DNA of 64,000 nt from Propionibacteriaceae bacterium. Its GTDB lineage: Bacteria > Actinomycetota > Actinomycetes > Propionibacteriales > Propionibacteriaceae. Below are positions 9,376-18,160 of the stretch, in pieces. The notes below the pieces were generated by a model. It worked only from the letters and a program-made list of their open reading frames with translations, did not search any database and had not been told where the DNA came from. Made by a program: the position numbers and the translations under genes. The stretch spans positions 10,878 to 74,877 of the forward strand of contig WREX01000001.1 in assembly GCA_009779115.1 (NCBI GenBank), read 5' to 3'. Position 1 is the stretch's first letter; every line of letters begins with the position of its first letter.

Positions 9376-9672
9376 ATGGCAAATGTGAATGTAACCTACG
9401 AAGAGATGACCGCAGCGGCTAACCGGCTGATGACTGGTGAACAAGATATCACTACACAGCTCAACGAGTTGAAGTCGTACATTGGGAACCTGGTCTCGAG
9501 CGGATTCGTGACCGATCAGGCATCGGTCAAGTTCAACGAGACGTACACCAACTTCACCACGAGTGCCACCCAGACCATCGGCGCTCTCGACGGACTGGCC
9601 CAGTACCTCACGCAGGCTGCCCAGGCCATGCAAGAAACTGACTCGCAACTGGCAGCCGGTCTCGGGCAATGA
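9376..9672 (+). CDS. esxA: WXG100/EsxA-like small helical-hairpin protein (type VII secretion substrate/component)
   Basis: 98 aa starting at ATG 9376, 7 nt after AAGGAG. The N-terminus reads MANVNVTYEEMTAAANRL. The C-terminal tail AQAMQETDSQLAAGLGQ parallels the S. aureus EsxA tail. The gene lies in an operon with an FtsK/SpoIIIE ATPase. The central W-x-G is replaced by SGF. Confidence 0.8.
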   Translation: MANVNVTYEEMTAAANRLMTGEQDITTQLNELKSYIGNLVSSGFVTDQASVKFNETYTNFTTSATQTIGALDGLAQYLTQAAQAMQETDSQLAAGLGQ

Positions 9673-10268
9673 CAACCATCACCGGACTGAATGGTGCCAC
9701 GGGTGCGGAGTGGTACTCCTGGCCCGTCGGCACCCCAGTCGGGGCCCTGGACGAGGTCGCCCGCCGCTTCACCGACGACACAGGACTGTGTGAAAACGCT
9801 TCCGCGTCGATCACGGCCCTAGACCACAGACTGTCCCAGATGGGGGCGGCCATGGGCGGGGTGTGGGCCCCGCCCCAGATGGCGGGGCTGATCACAGCCC
9901 AGTGGTGGGCAGGCATCCTTGTTTCTCCCGACGACAGTCAATTTCGCTCTGCCCGTCGCTATGAACGCATCGTGTCAGGACGGGATTTCGACGGGGTCGT
10001 CACGGTGTACGACCAGGACCTTCAGTCATTGTACGTTGATGACATGGAGGCGATCCTCACCATTGAGACTCGCGGCTCGGGCGATGAGACCCAACCTTAC
10101 ATTTTCGCTCGGGCTGTTTATTTCCCTTTGTGGACGACGGCTCGACCCATTCTTGAAGCCGCTTGCCCCGTCTTCACCCAGGTGGCAGAGTTCGCCGCCG
10201 AAATCACGGCGATTGCCAGCTCCCTCCACATCCTCACCTCCAACACCGAGACAAGGACTGCATCATGA
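9669..10268 (+). CDS. hypothetical protein, T7SS-locus associated (no recognisable family)
   Basis: 199 aa. Its ATG overlaps the esxA-like stop (ATGA), so translational coupling is likely. No TM helix seen. Confidence 0.6.
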   Translation: MTTITGLNGATGAEWYSWPVGTPVGALDEVARRFTDDTGLCENASASITALDHRLSQMGAAMGGVWAPPQMAGLITAQWWAGILVSPDDSQFRSARRYERIVSGRDFDGVVTVYDQDLQSLYVDDMEAILTIETRGSGDETQPYIFARAVYFPLWTTARPILEAACPVFTQVAEFAAEITAIASSLHILTSNTETRTAS

Positions 10269-11146
10269 CCCGCAGATTCTCCTTCGTCCTGCCCGATCGG
10301 TGGTGGCGCATACCGCTCATCAATAAACAGGCGCGAACAGCTAACATTGACCATGTCGTCGATAGTCAGTTCCCCAACATCGATGAGGCCGCCGCCCTCA
10401 GGCACGACATCAAGACTGAACTCCAGAAGGTGGCTGACCAAGCAGTCCGGGCTGGGGGAATTGTCATGGCCATCTACCTCCAGCACATCGAGGAAGTGCC
10501 AATCACAGCGACCATGACCTGCTACGACATTTCCGGGAAGCTCGCGCTGCCCGAGCAGATCGACCCGGCGAAGCTTCTTGCCATGTATGTGGGAGACAAG
10601 GAACTGGAGGACAGTCTGCCGGATCTAGAGGAGATGCTGTTCCCTGATCGTATTCGTACTGAATCAGATGAGGCGCCGGATTCGGCAGAGGAGACAGGCG
10701 GTACTTCCGCATCGGGAGATCGGACAGGCGAAACCCCTCCAGCGGAGGACCAGCAAAGCTACATCACCGAAGCTGGACCCCAGGAAGCTGACACCCCGAG
10801 CCTGGCAGCGCAGACACCTCCCCAAGGCGGTGACCACACCGACGAATCGGAGGAACCCCGGCCAGTATGGACGAAGGTCACTTCCTTCAATGTGCTCGCG
10901 TACCGGCAGGAGAAAATCACCCCGGGGACGGACTATTTCGGACCCGGCGCTCCGCTGATCCCCCAGCTGCAGGTCACCTACGCACAAATTGTCAAGAACT
11001 TTGGGCTCGTGCAGACAGTCTTCTCGACACCGGTGATCCCGGCAAGGGATGCCTGGGTGCCCATGTTCGACGCGATGATCGCCGCATTCCGGACCGGTGC
11101 GCCCGATGCGGACACCACAGAAACAACCGATTCCAAGGAGGTGTGA
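10265..11146 (+). CDS. hypothetical acidic protein with disordered central insert, T7SS-locus associated
   Basis: Start taken at ATG 10265, which overlaps the upstream stop (ATGA). 293 aa beginning MTRRFSFVLPDRWWRIPL. A central stretch of about 80 aa is rich in E/D/P/T. Confidence 0.6.
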   Translation: MTRRFSFVLPDRWWRIPLINKQARTANIDHVVDSQFPNIDEAAALRHDIKTELQKVADQAVRAGGIVMAIYLQHIEEVPITATMTCYDISGKLALPEQIDPAKLLAMYVGDKELEDSLPDLEEMLFPDRIRTESDEAPDSAEETGGTSASGDRTGETPPAEDQQSYITEAGPQEADTPSLAAQTPPQGGDHTDESEEPRPVWTKVTSFNVLAYRQEKITPGTDYFGPGAPLIPQLQVTYAQIVKNFGLVQTVFSTPVIPARDAWVPMFDAMIAAFRTGAPDADTTETTDSKEV

Positions 11147-11147
11147 C

Positions 11148-12146
11148 ATGCAGTATCCCCAACTACGTATCGACGCTGAGATATTGTTCAATGCAGGAAA
11201 CTCATTGAAAAGTGTTTCGGCTGATTTCGGCGAAGCCGGCCAACAGGCCAAGGATGTCGCAGGGCTAGTTGGGCATGAATCGGTGGCACATGCGATCCGA
11301 CAGTTCGCCGACACCTGGGATGACCGCAGGGCAAACATGAAGAAAGCCATCGATTCCCTCGCCGATGCCACAACCCAGATCGGCCAGGCCGTTGTGGACC
11401 TTGATCATCAACTCGGTGATTGTCTGGAGCCTCCTGGCACGGGAGTCCCCGGGCAAATCCCCAAGGAGCCGTATCCAGGACCCAACCCTCCGCCTGGTGG
11501 TCCGTACCCGCCTGGTGGTCCGTACCCGCCTGCTGGACCGTACCCGCCTGCTGGACCGTACCCGCCAGCTGGACCGTACCCGCCTGCTGGACCGTACCCA
11601 CCTGGTGGACCGTACCCACCCAGCGGACCCAACCCGCCTGCTGGACCGTACCCGCCTGCTGGACCGTACCCACCTGGTGGACCGTACCCGCCTGGTGGAC
11701 CGTACCCGCCGGCTGGACCGTACCCGCCTGGTGGACCGTACCCACCCAGCGGACCCAACCCGCCGGCTGGACCGTACCCGCCTGCTGGACCGTACCCACC
11801 CAGCGGACCCAACCCGCCTGCTGGACCGTACCCACCTGCTGGACCGTACCCGCCTGCTGGACCGTACCCGCCAGCTGGACCGTACCCGCCAGCTGGACCG
11901 TACCCGCCAGCTGGACCGTACCCGCCAGCTGGACCGTACCCGCCAGCTGGACCGTACCCACCTGCTGGACCGTACCCACCCAGCGGACCCAACCCGCCAG
12001 TAGGACCATACCCACCTGCCCCCGGACCTGGACCTACTCCTTCTCCGCTGCCCTCTCCACACCCGAACCCACCGGCACCGCACCCGAACCCGTATCCGCA
12101 TCCGTACCCAACGCCTCCACCGGACTCGACTAGACCACCCAGGTGA
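11148..12146 (+). CDS. helical N-terminal domain protein with a roughly 230-aa proline-rich tail, about 175 aa of it (GPYPPA)n hexapeptide repeats
   Basis: ATG 11148 lies 8 nt after AAGGAGG and 1 nt after the upstream stop. The N-terminal 100 aa (LRIDAEILFNAGNSLKSVSADF...WDDRRANMKKAIDSLADATTQIG) look like small helical T7SS-associated proteins. About 29 hexapeptide repeats follow, then a PxP-rich end. Confidence 0.7.
   Translation: MQYPQLRIDAEILFNAGNSLKSVSADFGEAGQQAKDVAGLVGHESVAHAIRQFADTWDDRRANMKKAIDSLADATTQIGQAVVDLDHQLGDCLEPPGTGVPGQIPKEPYPGPNPPPGGPYPPGGPYPPAGPYPPAGPYPPAGPYPPAGPYPPGGPYPPSGPNPPAGPYPPAGPYPPGGPYPPGGPYPPAGPYPPGGPYPPSGPNPPAGPYPPAGPYPPSGPNPPAGPYPPAGPYPPAGPYPPAGPYPPAGPYPPAGPYPPAGPYPPAGPYPPAGPYPPSGPNPPVGPYPPAPGPGPTPSPLPSPHPNPPAPHPNPYPHPYPTPPPDSTRPPR
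11478..12020 (+). repeat. 18-bp tandem repeat array (about 29-30 units), consensus GGACCGTACCCGCCTGCT, encoding GPYPP[AGS]
   Basis: Direct reading shows units in the pattern G A A A A G S/N-A A G G A G S/N-A A S/N-A A(x8) S/N-V A. The variant pair GPYPPS-GPNPPA recurs 4 times. All six frames are open across the array. Confidence 0.95.
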
Positions 12147-12186: not shown

Positions 12187-12229
12187 CGGTGGTGTGTGGC
12201 GACGCACTGCTCATCGCCACACACCACTG
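12187..12229 (+). terminator. strong stem-loop (14-bp perfect stem, 11-nt loop) downstream of the repeat-protein gene
   Basis: GTGGTGTGTGGCGA (12189-12202) pairs perfectly with TCGCCACACACCAC (12214-12227). It lies about 43 nt after the TGA at 12146. No U-tract follows, so it may be a terminator, an attenuator or an mRNA-processing or stabilising element. Confidence 0.5.
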
Positions 12230-12328: not shown

Positions 12329-13720
12329 ATGACACACAGAACCAATTGGAAAGTCTTGCGTACAACCGACCCCATGCCCGGAGATGTTCCCGGCATCCGT
12401 GACGCCGCTGATCACTATCAACAGATCACCACAGCCCTGACGACGACCCGTGATGATCTGGACACTGTGATGACTCGCGGATACAGCACAGACATGATCT
12501 CGGAGGCGGTGGACGCGATTCGTCAAACGGCCCAGAAGGTCAGAGACGCGGTGGATCAAGTTAGTGGACGCTACTGTGTTGTAGCGGGAGAATTGCACAG
12601 TTTCGCTACTTCCTTGGATGCGACCCAAACCCAGGCTGACTGGGCCGAAGGAGACGCTCAAGCCGCTACTCAGGCAGTCAAAGAGGCCCAGCAGAATGAG
12701 GCTATCTACAACGACCAGATCAACAAGCTCAAACTACAGATCAAGACCCAACAGCACGATGACCCGACGCAGTCCGACCCCACTACTCTTCAGCGGCTCC
12801 AGGATAAATTGGCTCAAGCTCAGCGACAACTCAGAGAGGTCGTACACGACATTTCTGATGCCCAAGGACGCATCGAAACAGCCTCCAACGACCTAGATAC
12901 CGCACTCGCAACATGGAACACGGCTGCAGAGCAAGTATCCGACACAATCCTGAGTCAACTCCAGTGCGACGGCCTGAATGACACCTGGTGGCTGAACTGG
13001 GGCCAAGACCTCTTCGGGTGGGCAATAGACCTCGCTGATTGGTTTGTCGACTCCATGGCCGAAATCTTGGATGGGATCTCCAAGATGATCGAAGGCTTGA
13101 TGGGCATGCTGGATGCGCTGGAAACGGGAGACCGGGATAAGTTCACGGATGCTTTCTTGGGCATGATGGACGGGTTGTCACTCTTGGCTGGCGCCCTTTC
13201 TAGCCTCCTGGGTGCCATAGCAACTGTTCTGAGTTTTATCCCGGGTTTGCAGGAGGCCGCTTTAGGCTTTAGCCTGGCGTCGGTCATCGTAGCAGGGGTC
13301 CAAGTCCTGGCCGACGTCGTCCTCGCCGCCAATCACAGGAAATCGTGGTCGACTGTGGGAGAGGAAGCGGTTTTAGCATTGGCGGGTGCTGCCCTGCGCG
13401 GACTCTCAGGACCGACCTTCGAAGGTGCCCTGCGTTCGGTTCTCCCCGCAAACGTGGTCAAGACCTTGTTTGCAGATGATACATTTGGCGCTGTCCTGGA
13501 CACATTTGGTACTGGCCTCACGGAATATCAGATTATCAACAATCAAGAATTGAACTACTCCATGCCGTCATTGAACCCCTCCTACGACTGGAGCAATATG
13601 CCTGAAAGTGAACAAGTGGGCATGGCCACCATGTTTGTCGCCGACGCCTATGTGCAATCGGAGGCGACTAGCTGGCGTAACTGGGGCAACACACTCGACA
13701 ACATCAAGAATGACTTCTAA
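12329..13720 (+). CDS. putative T7SS-secreted protein: N-terminal helical targeting domain plus C-terminal small-xxx-small membrane hairpin
   Basis: 463 aa. The N-terminus TTDPMPGDVPGIRDAADHYQQI resembles the actinobacterial putative T7SS secretion-signal domain. Residues 100-215 are coiled-coil-like. Residues 281-335, GLSLLAGALSSLLGAIATVLSFIPGLQEAALGFSLASVIVAGVQVLADVVLAA, form a glycine-zipper-like hydrophobic hairpin. Confidence 0.6.
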   Translation: MTHRTNWKVLRTTDPMPGDVPGIRDAADHYQQITTALTTTRDDLDTVMTRGYSTDMISEAVDAIRQTAQKVRDAVDQVSGRYCVVAGELHSFATSLDATQTQADWAEGDAQAATQAVKEAQQNEAIYNDQINKLKLQIKTQQHDDPTQSDPTTLQRLQDKLAQAQRQLREVVHDISDAQGRIETASNDLDTALATWNTAAEQVSDTILSQLQCDGLNDTWWLNWGQDLFGWAIDLADWFVDSMAEILDGISKMIEGLMGMLDALETGDRDKFTDAFLGMMDGLSLLAGALSSLLGAIATVLSFIPGLQEAALGFSLASVIVAGVQVLADVVLAANHRKSWSTVGEEAVLALAGAALRGLSGPTFEGALRSVLPANVVKTLFADDTFGAVLDTFGTGLTEYQIINNQELNYSMPSLNPSYDWSNMPESEQVGMATMFVADAYVQSEATSWRNWGNTLDNIKNDF

Positions 13721-13738: not shown

Positions 13739-16700
13739 GTGAAGATTCGGCTCACTCTTGCGACGGATGCGGGGCCGCGTGACATTACGGTGACTGCGGA
13801 TGCCACGGCCACCATCGGGGATGTTGCCTCCACTATCCGGCGCAGTCTCGCTTTTCAGGCGGGGCTGGCGCCGGGGGGTAACCCGGGGCCTCGGATGACT
13901 CTTCAGACGCTGTCGGCCACGGGGTTGGTCGAGCGGACGCTCTTGTCGCAGTCCAGTTTGTCGGACGCTGGTCTGTTGTCGGGGGCGACGATCCAGTTGG
14001 TGGTCTTAGACGCCATGCCCTCCCGGATTGACGACCATGCTGGTGCGGCGGCGTACCTGCATATCCTGTCGGGGCCGCAGACGGGACAGGCACTGCCGCT
14101 GCGCTCAGGACCCAACACCATCGGGCGCAGTCCGGGGGCCGACATCACCATCGACGATCCGTTCGTGTCCAGCATCCATGCCCGGATTGTCGTTTCGGAC
14201 CACATCGAGATCATCGACATGAACTCTGCCAATGGGATCGCCGTGGGGTCGGGTCTCGTGGAGCGGTCCAACCTCGAAGCCCATGACACAGTCACCCTGG
14301 GCGACACGAGCTTCCGGGTGGAACGCAACCCATCCGCGGGAGCTTCCTCGTCATGGACGACTTCGATCGAATTCAACCGTTCGCCTCAGATCTGGCCGGC
14401 TTACGCTGGTCGGACCTTCAAGCTTCCCCAGCCTGCCGGACCCACCAAGCCCGGGAAATTCCCCCTGGTCGCCATGGTTGCCCCGCTGATCATGGGAAGC
14501 GTGATGTACCTGTTCACTCACAACATCATGAGCGTCATTTTCGTGGCTCTCAGTCCGCTCATCGCGATCGGGACATGGCTGGACCGCCGGGTCACCGACC
14601 GCCGGGAGAAGAAACAACAGACCCAGCGGTTCCGGGATGAGATCGAGACCGCGTCAACTCAGATCCATCAGGCCCTGGCTGAAGAACAACAGGCCCGTTG
14701 TCAGGAAATCCCTTCCCTGCAAACCTTAGTTGCTTCGGTCTCACAACTGGCCCCCACCCTGTGGCACCGCCGTCCCGATCAGGAGAATTTCCTGACACTC
14801 ATGACCGGGTACGGCACTGCCGCCTCTCGATCAACCGTCGACTTGCCGCAACGTGGCGAAGGCTCCTCACAACTGTGGCAACTCGCCACCGACCTCCAGG
14901 CCCACTCTCAAACAGTCGACAACGTCCCCATCCTCGTACCACTGCGCACAACCGGAAACCTGGGGATCGCAGGGACTCCGGCCTGGCTCGACTCCGTGGC
15001 CTGCGCCATCGTCGCCCAACTGGCCTGTCTGCATTCTCCCGCTGAAGTCGTCATCACTGGAATCGCTTCCGTGGCCTCCTGCCGGCGGTGGAACTGGTTG
15101 ATGTGGCTGCCTCACGTCGGATCGACCCACTCGCCGATCGAAGGGCCCCACCTCGCCACCTCCCCCGCCGAAGTCTCCTCCCTGGTCTCCCGGCTGGAGG
15201 AGTTGTCCGCCAAACGCCGCGAACTGCGACGCGACGCCGCGACGGCGTTGCCAGCCGTCGTCCTCGTGGTGGAGAACGACGCCCCCATCGAGCGGGGGCG
15301 TCTGGTGTCTTTGGCAGAGAACGGCCCTGACACCGGGATACACCTGATCTGGATGACCCCCGAACAGCACGACCTGCCAGCAGCCTGCCATGCGTTCTTC
15401 GTGGAAAACCACAGTGAGCACACCATGCACATCGGTTTTACCCAGGACAACACCTGGACCCAGATCACCTCCTGCGAGACTCTGACACCGGCCGACGCCT
15501 TGGTTGTGGCCCGCAGGATGTCCCCGATCCACGACGCCGGGGCACCGATGATCGACCAGTCCGATCTGCCGCGCGCCATCTCGTACCTCGCCCTGGCAGG
15601 CCCTGAACTCGCGGATGACCCGTCCTTCACTGTGACCCGGTGGAGAGAGAACGGTTCCATCCTCGGCCCGGGGGAACTCCCGCCTTCCTCGGGGAGCAAC
15701 CTGCGGGGCCTGATCGGGCAAGGCGCCCACGGGGAGTTCGTCCTCGACCTGCGTATCCACGGGCCACACGCCCTGGTCGGTGGCACGACCGGCGCGGGCA
15801 AGTCGGAATTCCTCCAGGCCTGGGTCCTGGGGATGGCCGCCGCCAACAGCCCCAAACGAATCACCTTCTTGTTCGTCGATTACAAGGGCGGGGCGGCCTT
15901 CGCGGACTGCATCAAGCTGCCGCATTGCGTGGGTCTGGTCACCGACCTCAGCGCCCATCTGGTTCGCCGGGCTCTGACTTCACTGAAAGCCGAGTTGCGA
16001 TACAGGGAGCACTTGCTGAACGAGAAGAAAGCCAAAGACCTCGTCTCGCTGGAAGCCACCGGCGATCCGGATTGCCCACCCTCGCTCATCATCATCGTGG
16101 ACGAGTTCGCCGCGCTGGCCAAGGAGATCCCCGAGTTCGTCGACGGTGTCGTCGATGTCGCCCAGAGGGGGCGGTCGCTGGGCATGCACCTGATCATGGC
16201 CACACAGCGCCCGGCCGGGGTCATCCGGGACAACTTGCGTGCCAACACCAATTTGAGGATCGCCTTGCGCATGGCGGATGAGACCGATTCCACAGATGTC
16301 ATCGGTACTCCGCTGGCCTCCAGCTTCGACTCGCGTACCCCTGGCCGGGGAGCAGTACGAACAGGCCCGGGCCGTATCGCACTGTTCCAGTCCGGCTATG
16401 CGGGTGGCCAGACGACCAGCGAACCGGAACCGGCACGCATCGACGTGGAGACTCTGTGTTTCGGGGCCGGGGCGCCATGGGAGATCCCGAGCGACCGAGC
16501 ACCAAAACCTCAGCAATCGGGCACCAAGGACATCAGCCGGATCGTCTCCAGTATCTGCCAGGCCGCTGCGATCACCGCCATACCCGAGCCACGTAAACCC
16601 TGGTTGCCCGACCTCGACTCGGCCTATGACCTCGCGACTCTGTTCGCGGCCAGCACCCAGCGAGCGCGCGATACCTCGGTCACGGCTCTCGCTCTGGGGG

Positions 16701-18160
16701 TCATGGACGATCCGGCCAACCAGGCGCAACATCCCGTCTTCTGGAATCCCGATGAGGGCAATCTGGCCATTTATGGGGCTTCGGGCTCGGGAAAGTCCTC
16801 CACCTTGCGGACGATCGCGGTGTCAGCCAGCGTGTTGGCCCAGGTCGCGCGGGTGGATGTTTATGGCTTTGACGCCGGTTCGTCGGGTCTGGCCATGCTG
16901 GAACCGCTTCCTCATGTCGGCGCCATCATCGGAGCTGACGACCACGAGCGGGTCAACCGCCTGCTGCGCCGGTTGATCCAGACCCTCGACGAACGCGCGG
17001 ACAAGTTCGCTGCCGTTCGAGCAGGCAGTCTGGCCGACTACCGGCGCATCAGCGGTGACCAGACCACCGCCAGGATCCTCCTGCTGATCGACGGATTCGC
17101 CGCGTTCAGGGACATGTACGAGAACACCGTCGGAACGGCCCAACCGTACTCGATGCTAGCCAGGGTCTTGTCGGAAGGGCGTTCGGTGGGAATCCACGTG
17201 GCCCTGACCGCTGAAAGACCGAACGCCATCAACACCGCCCTGGCCGCCAGCATCCAGAAGAGACTGGTCCTCAAGCAGGCGGAGGAAGCGACGTACGTGC
17301 TGCTGAACATCGCCAAGGACATCCTCGACCCATCCAGTCCCCCCGGACGCGGGGTGTTCGCCGAAGACACCAACGAGATCCAGATAGCGGTCCTCAACGC
17401 GACGTCCGACACCGAGAAGCAAGCGGCGTCGATCGACTCGCTGGCCAAGTCGATGACACAGGTCGGCATCGTGGCGGCGCCGGGAGTGGAACGGTTGCCG
17501 AGCCTGATTCCGATCGGCCAGGTCCCGACATCTGTGGGCGGGCAACCAGTGTTGGGGGTCCGGGAAGACACGTTGGAACCGATCGGTTTCAGGGCCGAGG
17601 GAACCTTCGTCGTCGCGGGCATGCCAGGTACAGGGCGCACCACTGCCCTGCGCTATTTGTGCCATGCCCTGCACCGTTGGGATCCGCGGGTCCCCAAGTA
17701 CTACATCGGTCCGAGCCGGTCCGCCCTCCACGCCGAGACCATCTGGGCGGATCACGCGAGAACCGAGGAGGAGATCGCGGAGTTGTGCACCGACATTCTT
17801 CCTTCCCTGGAACGTCCAGCAGCGGGCATACCTGGTGCGGTGCTCGTCTTGGAGGCCTTGACCGAATTCATTGGATCCTCGGTGGAGAATCCCATCGTCG
17901 GTCTCATCCGGGCGGCCCGCCGCAATGGGCATCTGGTCATCGGCGAAACCGAGACTGCTGGTTGGGGATCGGCGTGGCCACTGATCTCTGAGATCAGAAA
18001 CGGACGCCGGGGCATCGTGCTTCAGCCCGACCAGGCGGACGGTGACGGGCTGTTCCGGGTGGCTTTCCCTCGCGTCAAGCGGGCCGACTTCCCCGTGGGA
18101 CGCGGAATCAGCGTGGATGCAGGCAAGTCATGTACGGTCCAGATTCCGCTGCCGGACTGA
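13739..18160 (+). CDS. essC: EssC/YukB-like type VII secretion ATPase: Ubl(beta-grasp)-FHA-2TM-3x FtsK/SpoIIIE
   Basis: GTG start 13739, 8 nt after GGGGAG. Residues 1-90 end in the YukD/EccD-like signature LSDAGLLSGATIQLVV. FHA spans residues 105-195. TM helices are FPLVAMVAPLIMGSVMYLF and IMSVIFVALSPLIAIGTWL. There are three P-loops: GTTGAGKSE, GASGSGKSS and GMPGTGRTT. Confidence 0.9.
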   Translation: MKIRLTLATDAGPRDITVTADATATIGDVASTIRRSLAFQAGLAPGGNPGPRMTLQTLSATGLVERTLLSQSSLSDAGLLSGATIQLVVLDAMPSRIDDHAGAAAYLHILSGPQTGQALPLRSGPNTIGRSPGADITIDDPFVSSIHARIVVSDHIEIIDMNSANGIAVGSGLVERSNLEAHDTVTLGDTSFRVERNPSAGASSSWTTSIEFNRSPQIWPAYAGRTFKLPQPAGPTKPGKFPLVAMVAPLIMGSVMYLFTHNIMSVIFVALSPLIAIGTWLDRRVTDRREKKQQTQRFRDEIETASTQIHQALAEEQQARCQEIPSLQTLVASVSQLAPTLWHRRPDQENFLTLMTGYGTAASRSTVDLPQRGEGSSQLWQLATDLQAHSQTVDNVPILVPLRTTGNLGIAGTPAWLDSVACAIVAQLACLHSPAEVVITGIASVASCRRWNWLMWLPHVGSTHSPIEGPHLATSPAEVSSLVSRLEELSAKRRELRRDAATALPAVVLVVENDAPIERGRLVSLAENGPDTGIHLIWMTPEQHDLPAACHAFFVENHSEHTMHIGFTQDNTWTQITSCETLTPADALVVARRMSPIHDAGAPMIDQSDLPRAISYLALAGPELADDPSFTVTRWRENGSILGPGELPPSSGSNLRGLIGQGAHGEFVLDLRIHGPHALVGGTTGAGKSEFLQAWVLGMAAANSPKRITFLFVDYKGGAAFADCIKLPHCVGLVTDLSAHLVRRALTSLKAELRYREHLLNEKKAKDLVSLEATGDPDCPPSLIIIVDEFAALAKEIPEFVDGVVDVAQRGRSLGMHLIMATQRPAGVIRDNLRANTNLRIALRMADETDSTDVIGTPLASSFDSRTPGRGAVRTGPGRIALFQSGYAGGQTTSEPEPARIDVETLCFGAGAPWEIPSDRAPKPQQSGTKDISRIVSSICQAAAITAIPEPRKPWLPDLDSAYDLATLFAASTQRARDTSVTALALGVMDDPANQAQHPVFWNPDEGNLAIYGASGSGKSSTLRTIAVSASVLAQVARVDVYGFDAGSSGLAMLEPLPHVGAIIGADDHERVNRLLRRLIQTLDERADKFAAVRAGSLADYRRISGDQTTARILLLIDGFAAFRDMYENTVGTAQPYSMLARVLSEGRSVGIHVALTAERPNAINTALAASIQKRLVLKQAEEATYVLLNIAKDILDPSSPPGRGVFAEDTNEIQIAVLNATSDTEKQAASIDSLAKSMTQVGIVAAPGVERLPSLIPIGQVPTSVGGQPVLGVREDTLEPIGFRAEGTFVVAGMPGTGRTTALRYLCHALHRWDPRVPKYYIGPSRSALHAETIWADHARTEEEIAELCTDILPSLERPAAGIPGAVLVLEALTEFIGSSVENPIVGLIRAARRNGHLVIGETETAGWGSAWPLISEIRNGRRGIVLQPDQADGDGLFRVAFPRVKRADFPVGRGISVDAGKSCTVQIPLPD
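14051..14324 (+). other. FHA domain of the EssC-like ATPase, with a canonical phosphothreonine-contact set
   Basis: YLHILSGPQTGQALPLRSGPNTIGRSPGADITIDDPFVSSIHARIVV...NSANGIAV...TLGDTSFRV. The G-R, S-x-x-H and N-G positions are all retained. Confidence 0.8.

Follow-up and report, generated by a model that had tools for sequence, protein, structure and literature searches.

Type VII secretion system (T7SS) cargo proteins that combine a helical N-terminal domain with small partner genes are known in Actinomycetota (PMC13444075, PMC13622651), and examples from Bacillota include T7SS cargo that acts on membranes (PMC7456083, PMC10434224, PMC12744356). Benedict et al. (2026) described actinomycetotal Esx toxins in which a helical N-domain goes together with Tap partners encoded upstream and immunity encoded downstream; 47% of the EatA-like proteins (400–1000 amino acids (aa)) are without a predicted function (PMC13444075). 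A preprint on Schaalia odontolytica (Wang et al., 2026) reported AesA and AesB, two mutually dependent, Esr2-dependent Esx substrates occurring in Actinomycetales and Propionibacteriales (PMC13622651). The accessible part of Garrett et al. [quoted passage not shown] Here we describe a gene, whose product we call P0001, located immediately upstream of the gene for an EccC/EssC-type ATPase on contig WREX01000001.1 of a Propionibacteriaceae bacterium; the 64,000-nucleotide (nt) stretch of this contig that was analysed is referred to as the window. P0001 consists of a helical N-terminal domain, a two-helix hydrophobic hairpin and a variable C-terminal tail. An earlier reading made from the letters alone (the sequence-only reading) had offered two options for it, (a) a membrane-depolarising toxin and (b) a novel membrane component or pore of the apparatus. 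Our analysis suggests that P0001, rather than being a fixed part of the machine, is probably a T7SS cargo that the neighbouring FHA-bearing EccC exports, that inserts into a membrane and that pairs with a helper protein, repeat-tailed and encoded upstream. Option (a), taken as a cargo with a membrane-active part, is thus better supported than option (b), the apparatus pore.

The Eat/Tap proteins resemble P0001 in that their N-terminal helical domain is elongated, their C-terminal cargo varies and the gene immediately upstream encodes a small helical partner (PMC13444075). Of the features typical of Eat/Tap, the helical bundle and the upstream helper domain are present at the P0001 locus, but a downstream immunity or inhibitor gene was not found before EccC. 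EatA, the partner of TapA1 and TapA2, carries a GH183 arabinanase and is followed by a lipoprotein inhibitor, whereas P0001 carries the hairpin and the variable tail, with no gene before EccC. Unlike the TapA1/TapA2 arrangement, the P0001 locus has one helper with a repeat tail of its own, and the likeness to EatA/Tap is one of published descriptions only. P0001 and its helper are also similar to AesA and AesB, which are encoded by adjacent substrate genes of an Esx cluster that is physically linked to a kinase/FHA/MoxR/transglutaminase cluster of the Esr type, FHA being fused to EccC, and of which one partner combines a helical N-domain with a long low-complexity tail (PMC13622651). The same Esx-Esr linkage with an FHA-bearing EccC was observed at the P0001 locus, where genes for a kinase, PP2C, FHA, TgpA and DUF58 proteins lie on the minus strand. 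The Aes type is marked by a heterodimer of the N-terminal helical domains and by a partner in which a Gly-rich disordered region leads to a charged C-terminus with the GYNVP/GYVNP motif. The tail of the P0001 partner differs in being Pro/Gly/Tyr-rich (GPYPP) with a Pro-rich end, without that charged region or motif, and a scan of 63 loci for the motif detected none. The main text of the preprint, as far as it was searched, describes no hydrophobic hairpin in AesA/AesB (PMC13622651), and here too the likeness was judged by descriptions only.

Like P0001, TspA, TelE and EsxX have a helical N-terminal targeting domain and small helical partners; their hydrophobic C-terminal part is rich in small residues, and the C-terminus is polymorphic. 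A further likeness is that EsxX has soluble partner proteins in the cytoplasm (PMC12744356). However, these Bacillota T7SSb proteins have an LXG domain, a GxxxGxxxG motif and polytopic immunity proteins, whereas P0001 has none of the three and belongs to another phylum and T7SS subtype. The LXG domain (PF04740) gave no match in P0001 at E<=0.01, and in the feature search of the Atlas no LXG cluster ranked higher than 49. The conserved element of P0001, a two-helix hairpin with a DxWW lead-in, is likewise unlike TspA, TelE and EsxX. The host system of P0001 matches the T7SSd in its WXG100 protein, its FHA-bearing EssC-like ATPase, its Ser/Thr kinase and its giant surface protein, and in being without EccB/EccD or EssA/EssB/EsaA. 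The accessible part of the T7SSd description lists no P0001-like protein among the five core components, and TsdH, with a single transmembrane (TM) helix and a short unstructured cytoplasmic region, is unlike P0001 (PMC11217815). Finally, the SipB/IpaB translocators of type III secretion systems and the colicin-type hairpins resemble P0001 in joining a long coiled-coil or helical N-terminal part to a hydrophobic hairpin of two helices that stays soluble until it inserts. This is an analogy only, as the secretion system differs and the matches are at noise level (Pfam T3SSipB, 3.1e-4, in one family member; SipB, E = 0.66, in a profile search of the PDB).

The P0001 gene (12329–13720 on the plus strand, including the stop codon) is an uninterrupted open reading frame (ORF) of 463 codons, translated into 463 aa. 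It comes from a termite-gut metagenome-assembled genome (MAG) of Propionibacteriaceae (2.25 Mb, 65% complete), whose closest named relatives are also Propionibacteriaceae MAGs. Sequence conservation shows the ATG at 12329 to be the true start: homologues of only ~30% identity keep both MTHRTNW and the pattern W..L...DP.PGD. A weak purine-rich stretch, GAAAGAAG, lies 5′ of this ATG. The N-terminal peptide TTDPMPGDVPGIRDAADHY that the sequence-only reading had singled out was located at residues 12–30. Between the stop codon at 13720 and the GTG start codon of EccC at 13739 there are 18 nt and no gene. Three minus-strand ORFs in or beside P0001 (12293–12661, 12955–13332 and 11265–12296) were treated as shadow frames.

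Residues 1–215 (12329–12973, plus strand) make up the putative N-terminal helical export domain, which was delimited from a sub-threshold match to PF21725 (T7SS_signal), from a predicted local distance difference test (pLDDT) score above 90 in the AlphaFold2 (AF2) model and from conserved columns. Conserved positions are W7, P15 and G18 (in W..L...DP.PGD), R81-Y82, Q100 and E107, and the domain ends at a DGxNDTWW motif, the family form of which is DGxNDxWW (DxWW). Whole P0001 matched PF21725 with E = 1.3e-4 and 22.3 bits and did not reach the gathering threshold of 27; residues 1–250 scored 24.3 bits, the genome search gave 23.8 bits, and residues 1–215 alone gave E = 3.3e-5. Among 96 homologues collected with a P0001/P0004 profile, 50 matched PF21725 at E<=1e-3 (best, 5.8e-12), nine matched WXG100 and four EspB_PPE, and RHS, Scabin-like ADP-ribosyltransferase and glutamine-deamidase domains were each detected on single homologues. 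The top protein Atlas clusters for P0001 were 72–76% PF21725. By transitivity through these relatives, the P0001 N-domain is a member of the PF21725/WXG100-like export-domain superfamily, and the resemblance to actinobacterial T7SS signal domains noted earlier is real, if sub-threshold for P0001 itself. The structure was modelled with a 150-sequence alignment, as a 2-sequence alignment reached a pLDDT of only 49.6. The model had a pLDDT of 77 overall, above 90 for residues 1–220 and 65–92 for residues 240–340. All of residues 20–334 were modelled as long helices, with pLDDT above 90 for those at residues 20–49, 59–143 and 151–213.

The N-domain is followed by an acidic, Trp-rich, amphipathic helical insert (residues 216–280; 12974–13168, plus strand), which has a net charge of -10, five Trp residues and a hydrophobic moment of up to 0.54. 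This insert of ~65 residues is specific to the P0001 subfamily. The two hydrophobic helices that had been claimed for residues 281–335 (13169–13333, plus strand) were recovered as stretches at 285–303 and 312–334, on the basis of Kyte-Doolittle hydropathy, a family-wide homologous pattern and an AF2 pLDDT of 65–80. They are joined by the loop IPGLQEAA, in which Pro305 is nearly invariant in the family; Asp329, near the end of helix 2, is usually conserved, as is a Ser-Trp pair (Trp340) just after the hairpin. The Kyte-Doolittle means of the P0001 helices are 2.03 and 2.21, and the hairpin of the P0001 subfamily is the least hydrophobic in the family; the helices of distant members are TM-grade, with means of 2.5–2.9. 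At least one 19-mer with a mean of >=1.9 was present in 130 of 135 full-length representatives and at least two in 88, the first hydrophobic segment lying a median of 21 residues past DxWW. The remaining five fell below this threshold, and four of these are among the closest relatives of P0001. On these patterns, the two-helix hydrophobic hairpin is a conserved family hallmark. The proposed glycine zipper, or enrichment in small-xxx-small motifs, did not hold up: the hairpin is 42% Gly/Ala/Ser, and the small-xxx-small spacing is not more frequent than when these residues are shuffled (p = 0.16). GxxxGxxxG is absent from P0001 and was found in the hairpin region of only 5 of 136 family members. 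Residues 336–463 (13334–13720, plus strand) form a hypervariable tail with no recognisable fold or family. Most of residues 350–463 have an AF2 pLDDT below 50, and a search of the protein Atlas with the tail alone returned scores at chance level (<=0.83). Past the hairpin, the tails of family members comprise 89–191 aa and are effectively unalignable (2/153 pairs BLAST-significant), with a mean identity of 17% to that of P0001.

A word-indexed homologue search returned only P0001 itself and one relative of 30% identity, so that an exhaustive profile search was needed, which yielded 521 cluster representatives at E <= 1e-3, 18 of them at E <= 1e-30. The family profile matched 103 of 401 sampled Actinomycetes genomes, often with several copies per genome; this tally, alone among the results, takes in the unpublished genomes G069 and G075. 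Members share the PF21725-type N-terminal helical domain, the DxWW motif, the two-helix hairpin with its loop Pro and helix-2 Asp, and the hypervariable tail. A search for related loci with a 7-sequence alignment retrieved only Propionibacteriaceae MAGs and fragments from Plantibacter and Cryobacterium, and nothing from Schaalia. Rv3446c, encoded beside eccC4 in ESX-4, is a conceivable relative. No paper on the hairpin family was found in the literature, where the terms PF21725, T7SS secretion signal and DUF6317 gave nothing relevant. As judged from the profile matches, P0001 belongs to a large, uncharacterised actinobacterial family.

The gene order of the operon is esxA, o199, o293, the repeat-tailed helper, P0001 and EccC, and the same order was found in six related loci. 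In these loci, EccC was 70–77%, EsxA 55–76%, o199 41–54% and o293 37–50% identical to the window proteins, whereas the P0001 orthologues were 27–36% identical, over the first 300–390 residues only. No other gene of the locus evolves nearly as fast as that of P0001, and its much higher rate compared with EccC favours the cargo reading. So does the finding that in genome G018 of the same genus a homologous N-domain is carried on an RHS toxin: the first ~220 residues of a 1452-aa RHS-repeat protein (L015:8535–12893), which is found behind EccC, esxA, a helper of 127 aa and a fusion (436 aa) of SseB-N (PF07179) with an o293-like part, are homologous to the P0001 N-domain. The cargo reading is further favoured because the family is multi-copy and in places tandem (cassettes in L069, L074 and L077), and because many copies are remote from the ATPase, EccC being encoded within 7–8 kb in 8 of 20 sampled family loci and not within that distance in the other 12. 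It is favoured, too, because three genomes of the same genus that are 93–99% complete and have the FHA-EccC (G001, G003 and G006) contain no family member detectable by profile search. In G003, three ORFs of 218, 627 and 209 aa without a Pfam match lie beside EccC, upstream of it (L085 on contig C2, 5716–8941), and these may represent a different substrate cassette. A second FHA-type EccC paralogue, 45% identical, is present in the genome of P0001 beside a TgpA-like gene (G000:C4:23436–27878; L087), and no esxA, helper or hairpin-family gene was found in the 20-kb stretch that contains it.

These observations make it improbable that P0001 is a structural membrane component of a minimal Esr-linked (T7SSd-type) apparatus, in which the hairpin would be anchored beside EccC and form or gate a channel while the N-domain docks on the ATPase. 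P0001 matched no core T7SS membrane component (EccB/EccD/EccE, EssA/EssB/EsaA, TsdH/TsdI) in Pfam or NCBIfam. Its distribution is also not that of a component, being missing from some ATPase-bearing genomes and from the surroundings of the second EccC, multi-copy, frequently orphaned and diverging faster than the machine, and the pore proposed as option (b) is therefore disfavoured. Members occur, moreover, in large genomes of the same order that have both EccB and EccD (e.g. G026). With both ends of P0001 on one side of the membrane, an apparatus component would hold its tail in the cytoplasm together with the N-domain, which is hard to reconcile with the rapid change of the tail. Several observations nevertheless weigh against an exported, membrane-inserting cargo, and some of them would suit an apparatus component. 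None of 12 genomes of the genus yielded an EccB, or an EccD scoring above the cut-off, so that the machine has no recognised membrane partner, and the T7SSd core (TsdA, TsdC, TsdD, TsdH, TsdI), as published, is without a polytopic channel protein (PMC11217815). Of the same-genus loci with a family member, most have it directly beside EccC, as the window does: L001, L011–L014 and L017, and L018 on the other side of EccC. A member also adjoins EccC in L080. There is no polytopic immunity gene adjacent to P0001, although a kin-active membrane toxin would normally need one, and TspA is also reported to be located at the producer's membrane in an EssC-dependent manner (PMC7456083). P0001 itself is below the Pfam threshold for PF21725. 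Foldseek with the P0001 model retrieved nothing beyond generic long helical bundles and BAR domains (E >= 0.02), the profile search against the PDB returned coiled-coil noise with EsxA at only E = 0.05, and the P0001 sequence is present only in DNA runs of termite-gut metagenomes. To these is added the apparent insertion free energy of the P0001 helices, ~+0.2 and +3.9 kcal/mol. Because the P0001 hairpin is only marginally hydrophobic, it could be a buried soluble core.

This last point bears on the view of P0001 as a soluble secreted co-substrate or scaffold without a membrane role, in which the hairpin would be the core of a helical bundle and the protein would carry or present its repeat-tailed partner. 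AF2 packs residues 216–334 as long helices with moderate confidence, the hydrophobicity of the subfamily hairpin is marginal, four of the five sub-threshold representatives being close to P0001, and in an Esr-linked Esx system AesA needs AesB for its secretion and vice versa (PMC13622651). However, in most of the family the two helices are of full TM grade, Trp-flanked and joined by a short Pro-Gly loop, a pattern that typifies membrane hairpins rather than bundle cores, and we regard a purely soluble role as rather unlikely. Within the cargo reading, a special case is a strict depolarising antibacterial toxin, the hairpin of which would oligomerise in the membrane of a competitor to form an ion pore lined by the helix-2 Asp, with the tail setting specificity. 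This is possible but doubtful. The hairpin is conserved with its intramembrane acidic residue, the C-terminus is as hypervariable as one expects of polymorphic toxins, bona fide toxin domains are found on sister proteins that have the same export domain, and small multi-TM proteins are encoded directly after some family members (177 aa with two TM helices after P0021; 163 aa with four in L077); TspA, TelE and EsxX provide functional precedents (PMC7456083, PMC10434224, PMC12744356). Set against this, no sequence or Pfam link to the toxin domains of TspA, TelE and EsxX was found, P0001 is without the GxxxGxxxG motif that TelE and EsxX require, and the hairpin of its subfamily is the least hydrophobic of the family. 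A constant hairpin with a variable tail is also the reverse of a classical polymorphic toxin, in which a constant trafficking region is combined with a swapped toxin domain. Of option (a), then, the export superfamily shared with toxins and the conserved hairpin stand, and a glycine zipper of the TspA/TelE/EsxX type does not. The absence of an immunity gene before EccC, which had been pointed out as odd, was confirmed, and no membrane immunity gene was found in the six syntenic loci of the genus either. It is less odd than claimed, since P0001 is one member of a conserved cassette that consists of a helper, the hairpin protein and two soluble accessory proteins. Taking both sides together, we continue to favour P0001 as a probable membrane-inserting cargo.

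The operon is encoded on the plus strand and begins with an esxA-like WXG100 gene (9376–9672; PF06013, 2e-16), which is syntenic in relatives. It is followed by o199 (9669–10268), a soluble accessory protein that is syntenic in relatives and has no family match, and by o293 (10265–11146), also soluble, which is homologous to a ~200–270-aa protein found after family members class-wide. The helper (11148–12146) is composed of a ~100-aa WXG100/DUF6317-like domain (Tap/Lap-like), ~29 GPYPP[A/G/S] repeats and a Pro-rich tail. Its N-domain is 36.6% identical (E = 1.2e-17) to a 94-aa protein encoded upstream of the distant member P0021 and weakly matches WXG100_2 (0.018). The gene after P0001 encodes, as had been claimed, an ATPase: the EccC/EssC-type protein (13739–18160; 1473 aa) has an N-terminal ubiquitin-like and FHA region, matches PF01580 (1.8e-51), FHA (4.5e-11) and TIGR03928 (9.6e-166), and has its own GGGGAG Shine-Dalgarno sequence before the GTG start codon. 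Beyond EccC, the Esr-type kinase/PP2C/FHA/TgpA/DUF58 cluster lies on the opposite strand, and menaquinone genes are located upstream of the operon. The 182-nt gap between the helper and P0001 contains a perfect 14-bp inverted repeat (12189–12227, plus strand) with the arms GTGGTGTGTGGCGA and TCGCCACACACCAC. Its RNA fold has a free energy of -34 kcal/mol (z = -5.9), and no U-tract was found after it; the RNA hairpin may be a processing, stabilising or attenuating element that sets the helper:P0001 ratio.

Small helpers of 94–110 aa precede family members in many loci class-wide, where the cassette consists of (EccC), esxA, a ~95–110-aa helper, the family member, a ~200-aa protein and an o293-like protein. 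In a distant cassette, the second accessory protein (148 aa) is weakly similar to o199 (E = 0.006), and no significant similarity was found between o199 and the SseB-N half of the G018 protein. The folded N- and C-terminal parts of o293 are split by an acidic insert, which is missing from its relatives in G016 and G018 (L089:4696–6048), where an SseB-N domain is fused to them. Because the o293-like module also accompanies the RHS-type cargo in G018, it became less likely that o199 and o293 neutralise the hairpin in the cytoplasm as ExiAB-like proteins, and a general role as export chaperones fits better. In the locus of P0021, a 177-aa protein with two strong TM helices (L031:2039–2572) has a start that overlaps the stop of the family member, and is a candidate membrane immunity or partner protein; no counterpart was found at the P0001 locus. 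Multi-TM ORFs were also observed after family members in L077 (163 aa, 4 TM), L069, L066 and L065.

The base composition of P0001 is exceptional in the window. With 54.9% guanine plus cytosine (GC) overall and 63.1% at third codon positions (GC3), it ranks last for GC (z = -2.9) and second to last for GC3 (z = -2.0) among the 39 long ORFs, and the only ORF with a GC3 below that of P0001 is the gene of the repeat-tailed partner. The low GC content pointed out by the sequence-only reading is therefore real, and its counts for single 60-nt lines, 53% (12661), 38% (13501) and 52% (13561), are exact. Its value of ~70% for the next gene is too high, as EccC has 64.0%, with individual 60-nt lines ranging from 55% to 75%. 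The GPYPP repeat region of the helper (11451–12146) has 70% GC overall and a GC3 of only 51%. Its GC derives from codon positions 1 and 2 of Gly and Pro codons, and plain windowed GC thus hides the lowest GC3 in the window. A GC3 deficit was also seen in the orthologue of the other high-GC relative (0.71 vs 0.91 in L011) and was missing from the P0001 orthologues of low-GC relatives. The view that the low GC stems from a recent horizontal insertion was rejected, considering that the six loci are syntenic, that the helper shares the low GC3 and that the contrast appears only in high-GC relatives. The suggestion that P0001 was acquired separately from the ATPase fails, as a recent event, on the same conservation of position in the six loci. 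Because the helper shares the GC3 deficit and the position is conserved, fast evolution, relaxed selection on codons or an exchange of alleles within the lineage is more likely than a recent foreign insertion.

We propose the following scheme for P0001. Residues 1–~215 would form an elongated helical export domain of the PF21725/WXG100-like type, which, by analogy with Lap/LXG, Tap/Eat, PE/PPE and AesA/AesB, may pair with the WXG100-like N-domain of the upstream protein (11148–12146). The pair of helper and P0001 would then be handed to EccC for export, with o199 and o293 most likely acting as export chaperones or adaptors. The putative cargo part is the helical hairpin, with a Trp flank on one side, a short Pro loop and the conserved helix-2 Asp, followed by the species-specific hypervariable tail. 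While the protein is soluble, the acidic amphipathic insert (216–280) might, speculatively, shield the hairpin. After export, we infer, the hairpin would insert into the membrane of a neighbour (a competitor or epibiont) or into the outer face of the producer's own membrane, and the variable tail would be displayed outside. An extension of this scheme, which we offer as a long shot, is that the family represents the missing membrane element of the minimal Esr-linked T7SS: exported by EccC, the Asp-hairpin would insert into the outer leaflet of the producer or into the target membrane and, like a type III translocator, build a translocon for the repeat-tailed partner, with the tail selecting the target.

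Roles of non-mycobacterial actinobacterial T7SSs, such as defence against epibionts and interbacterial killing, have been assigned only recently, and very few of their substrates are known. P0001 opens the way to a large and as yet uncharacterised substrate family with members in about a quarter of the sampled Actinomycetes genomes, and the conserved payload of this family is a membrane hairpin, not an enzyme. The P0001 locus provides testable parts, namely the helper, the two soluble accessory proteins, the conserved Asp and the conserved Pro. Should membrane insertion of the hairpin hold true, the family would be an actinobacterial counterpart, differently built, of the depolarising toxins of staphylococci and streptococci, and might explain how minimal systems without channel proteins of the EccB/EccD type act at the membrane.

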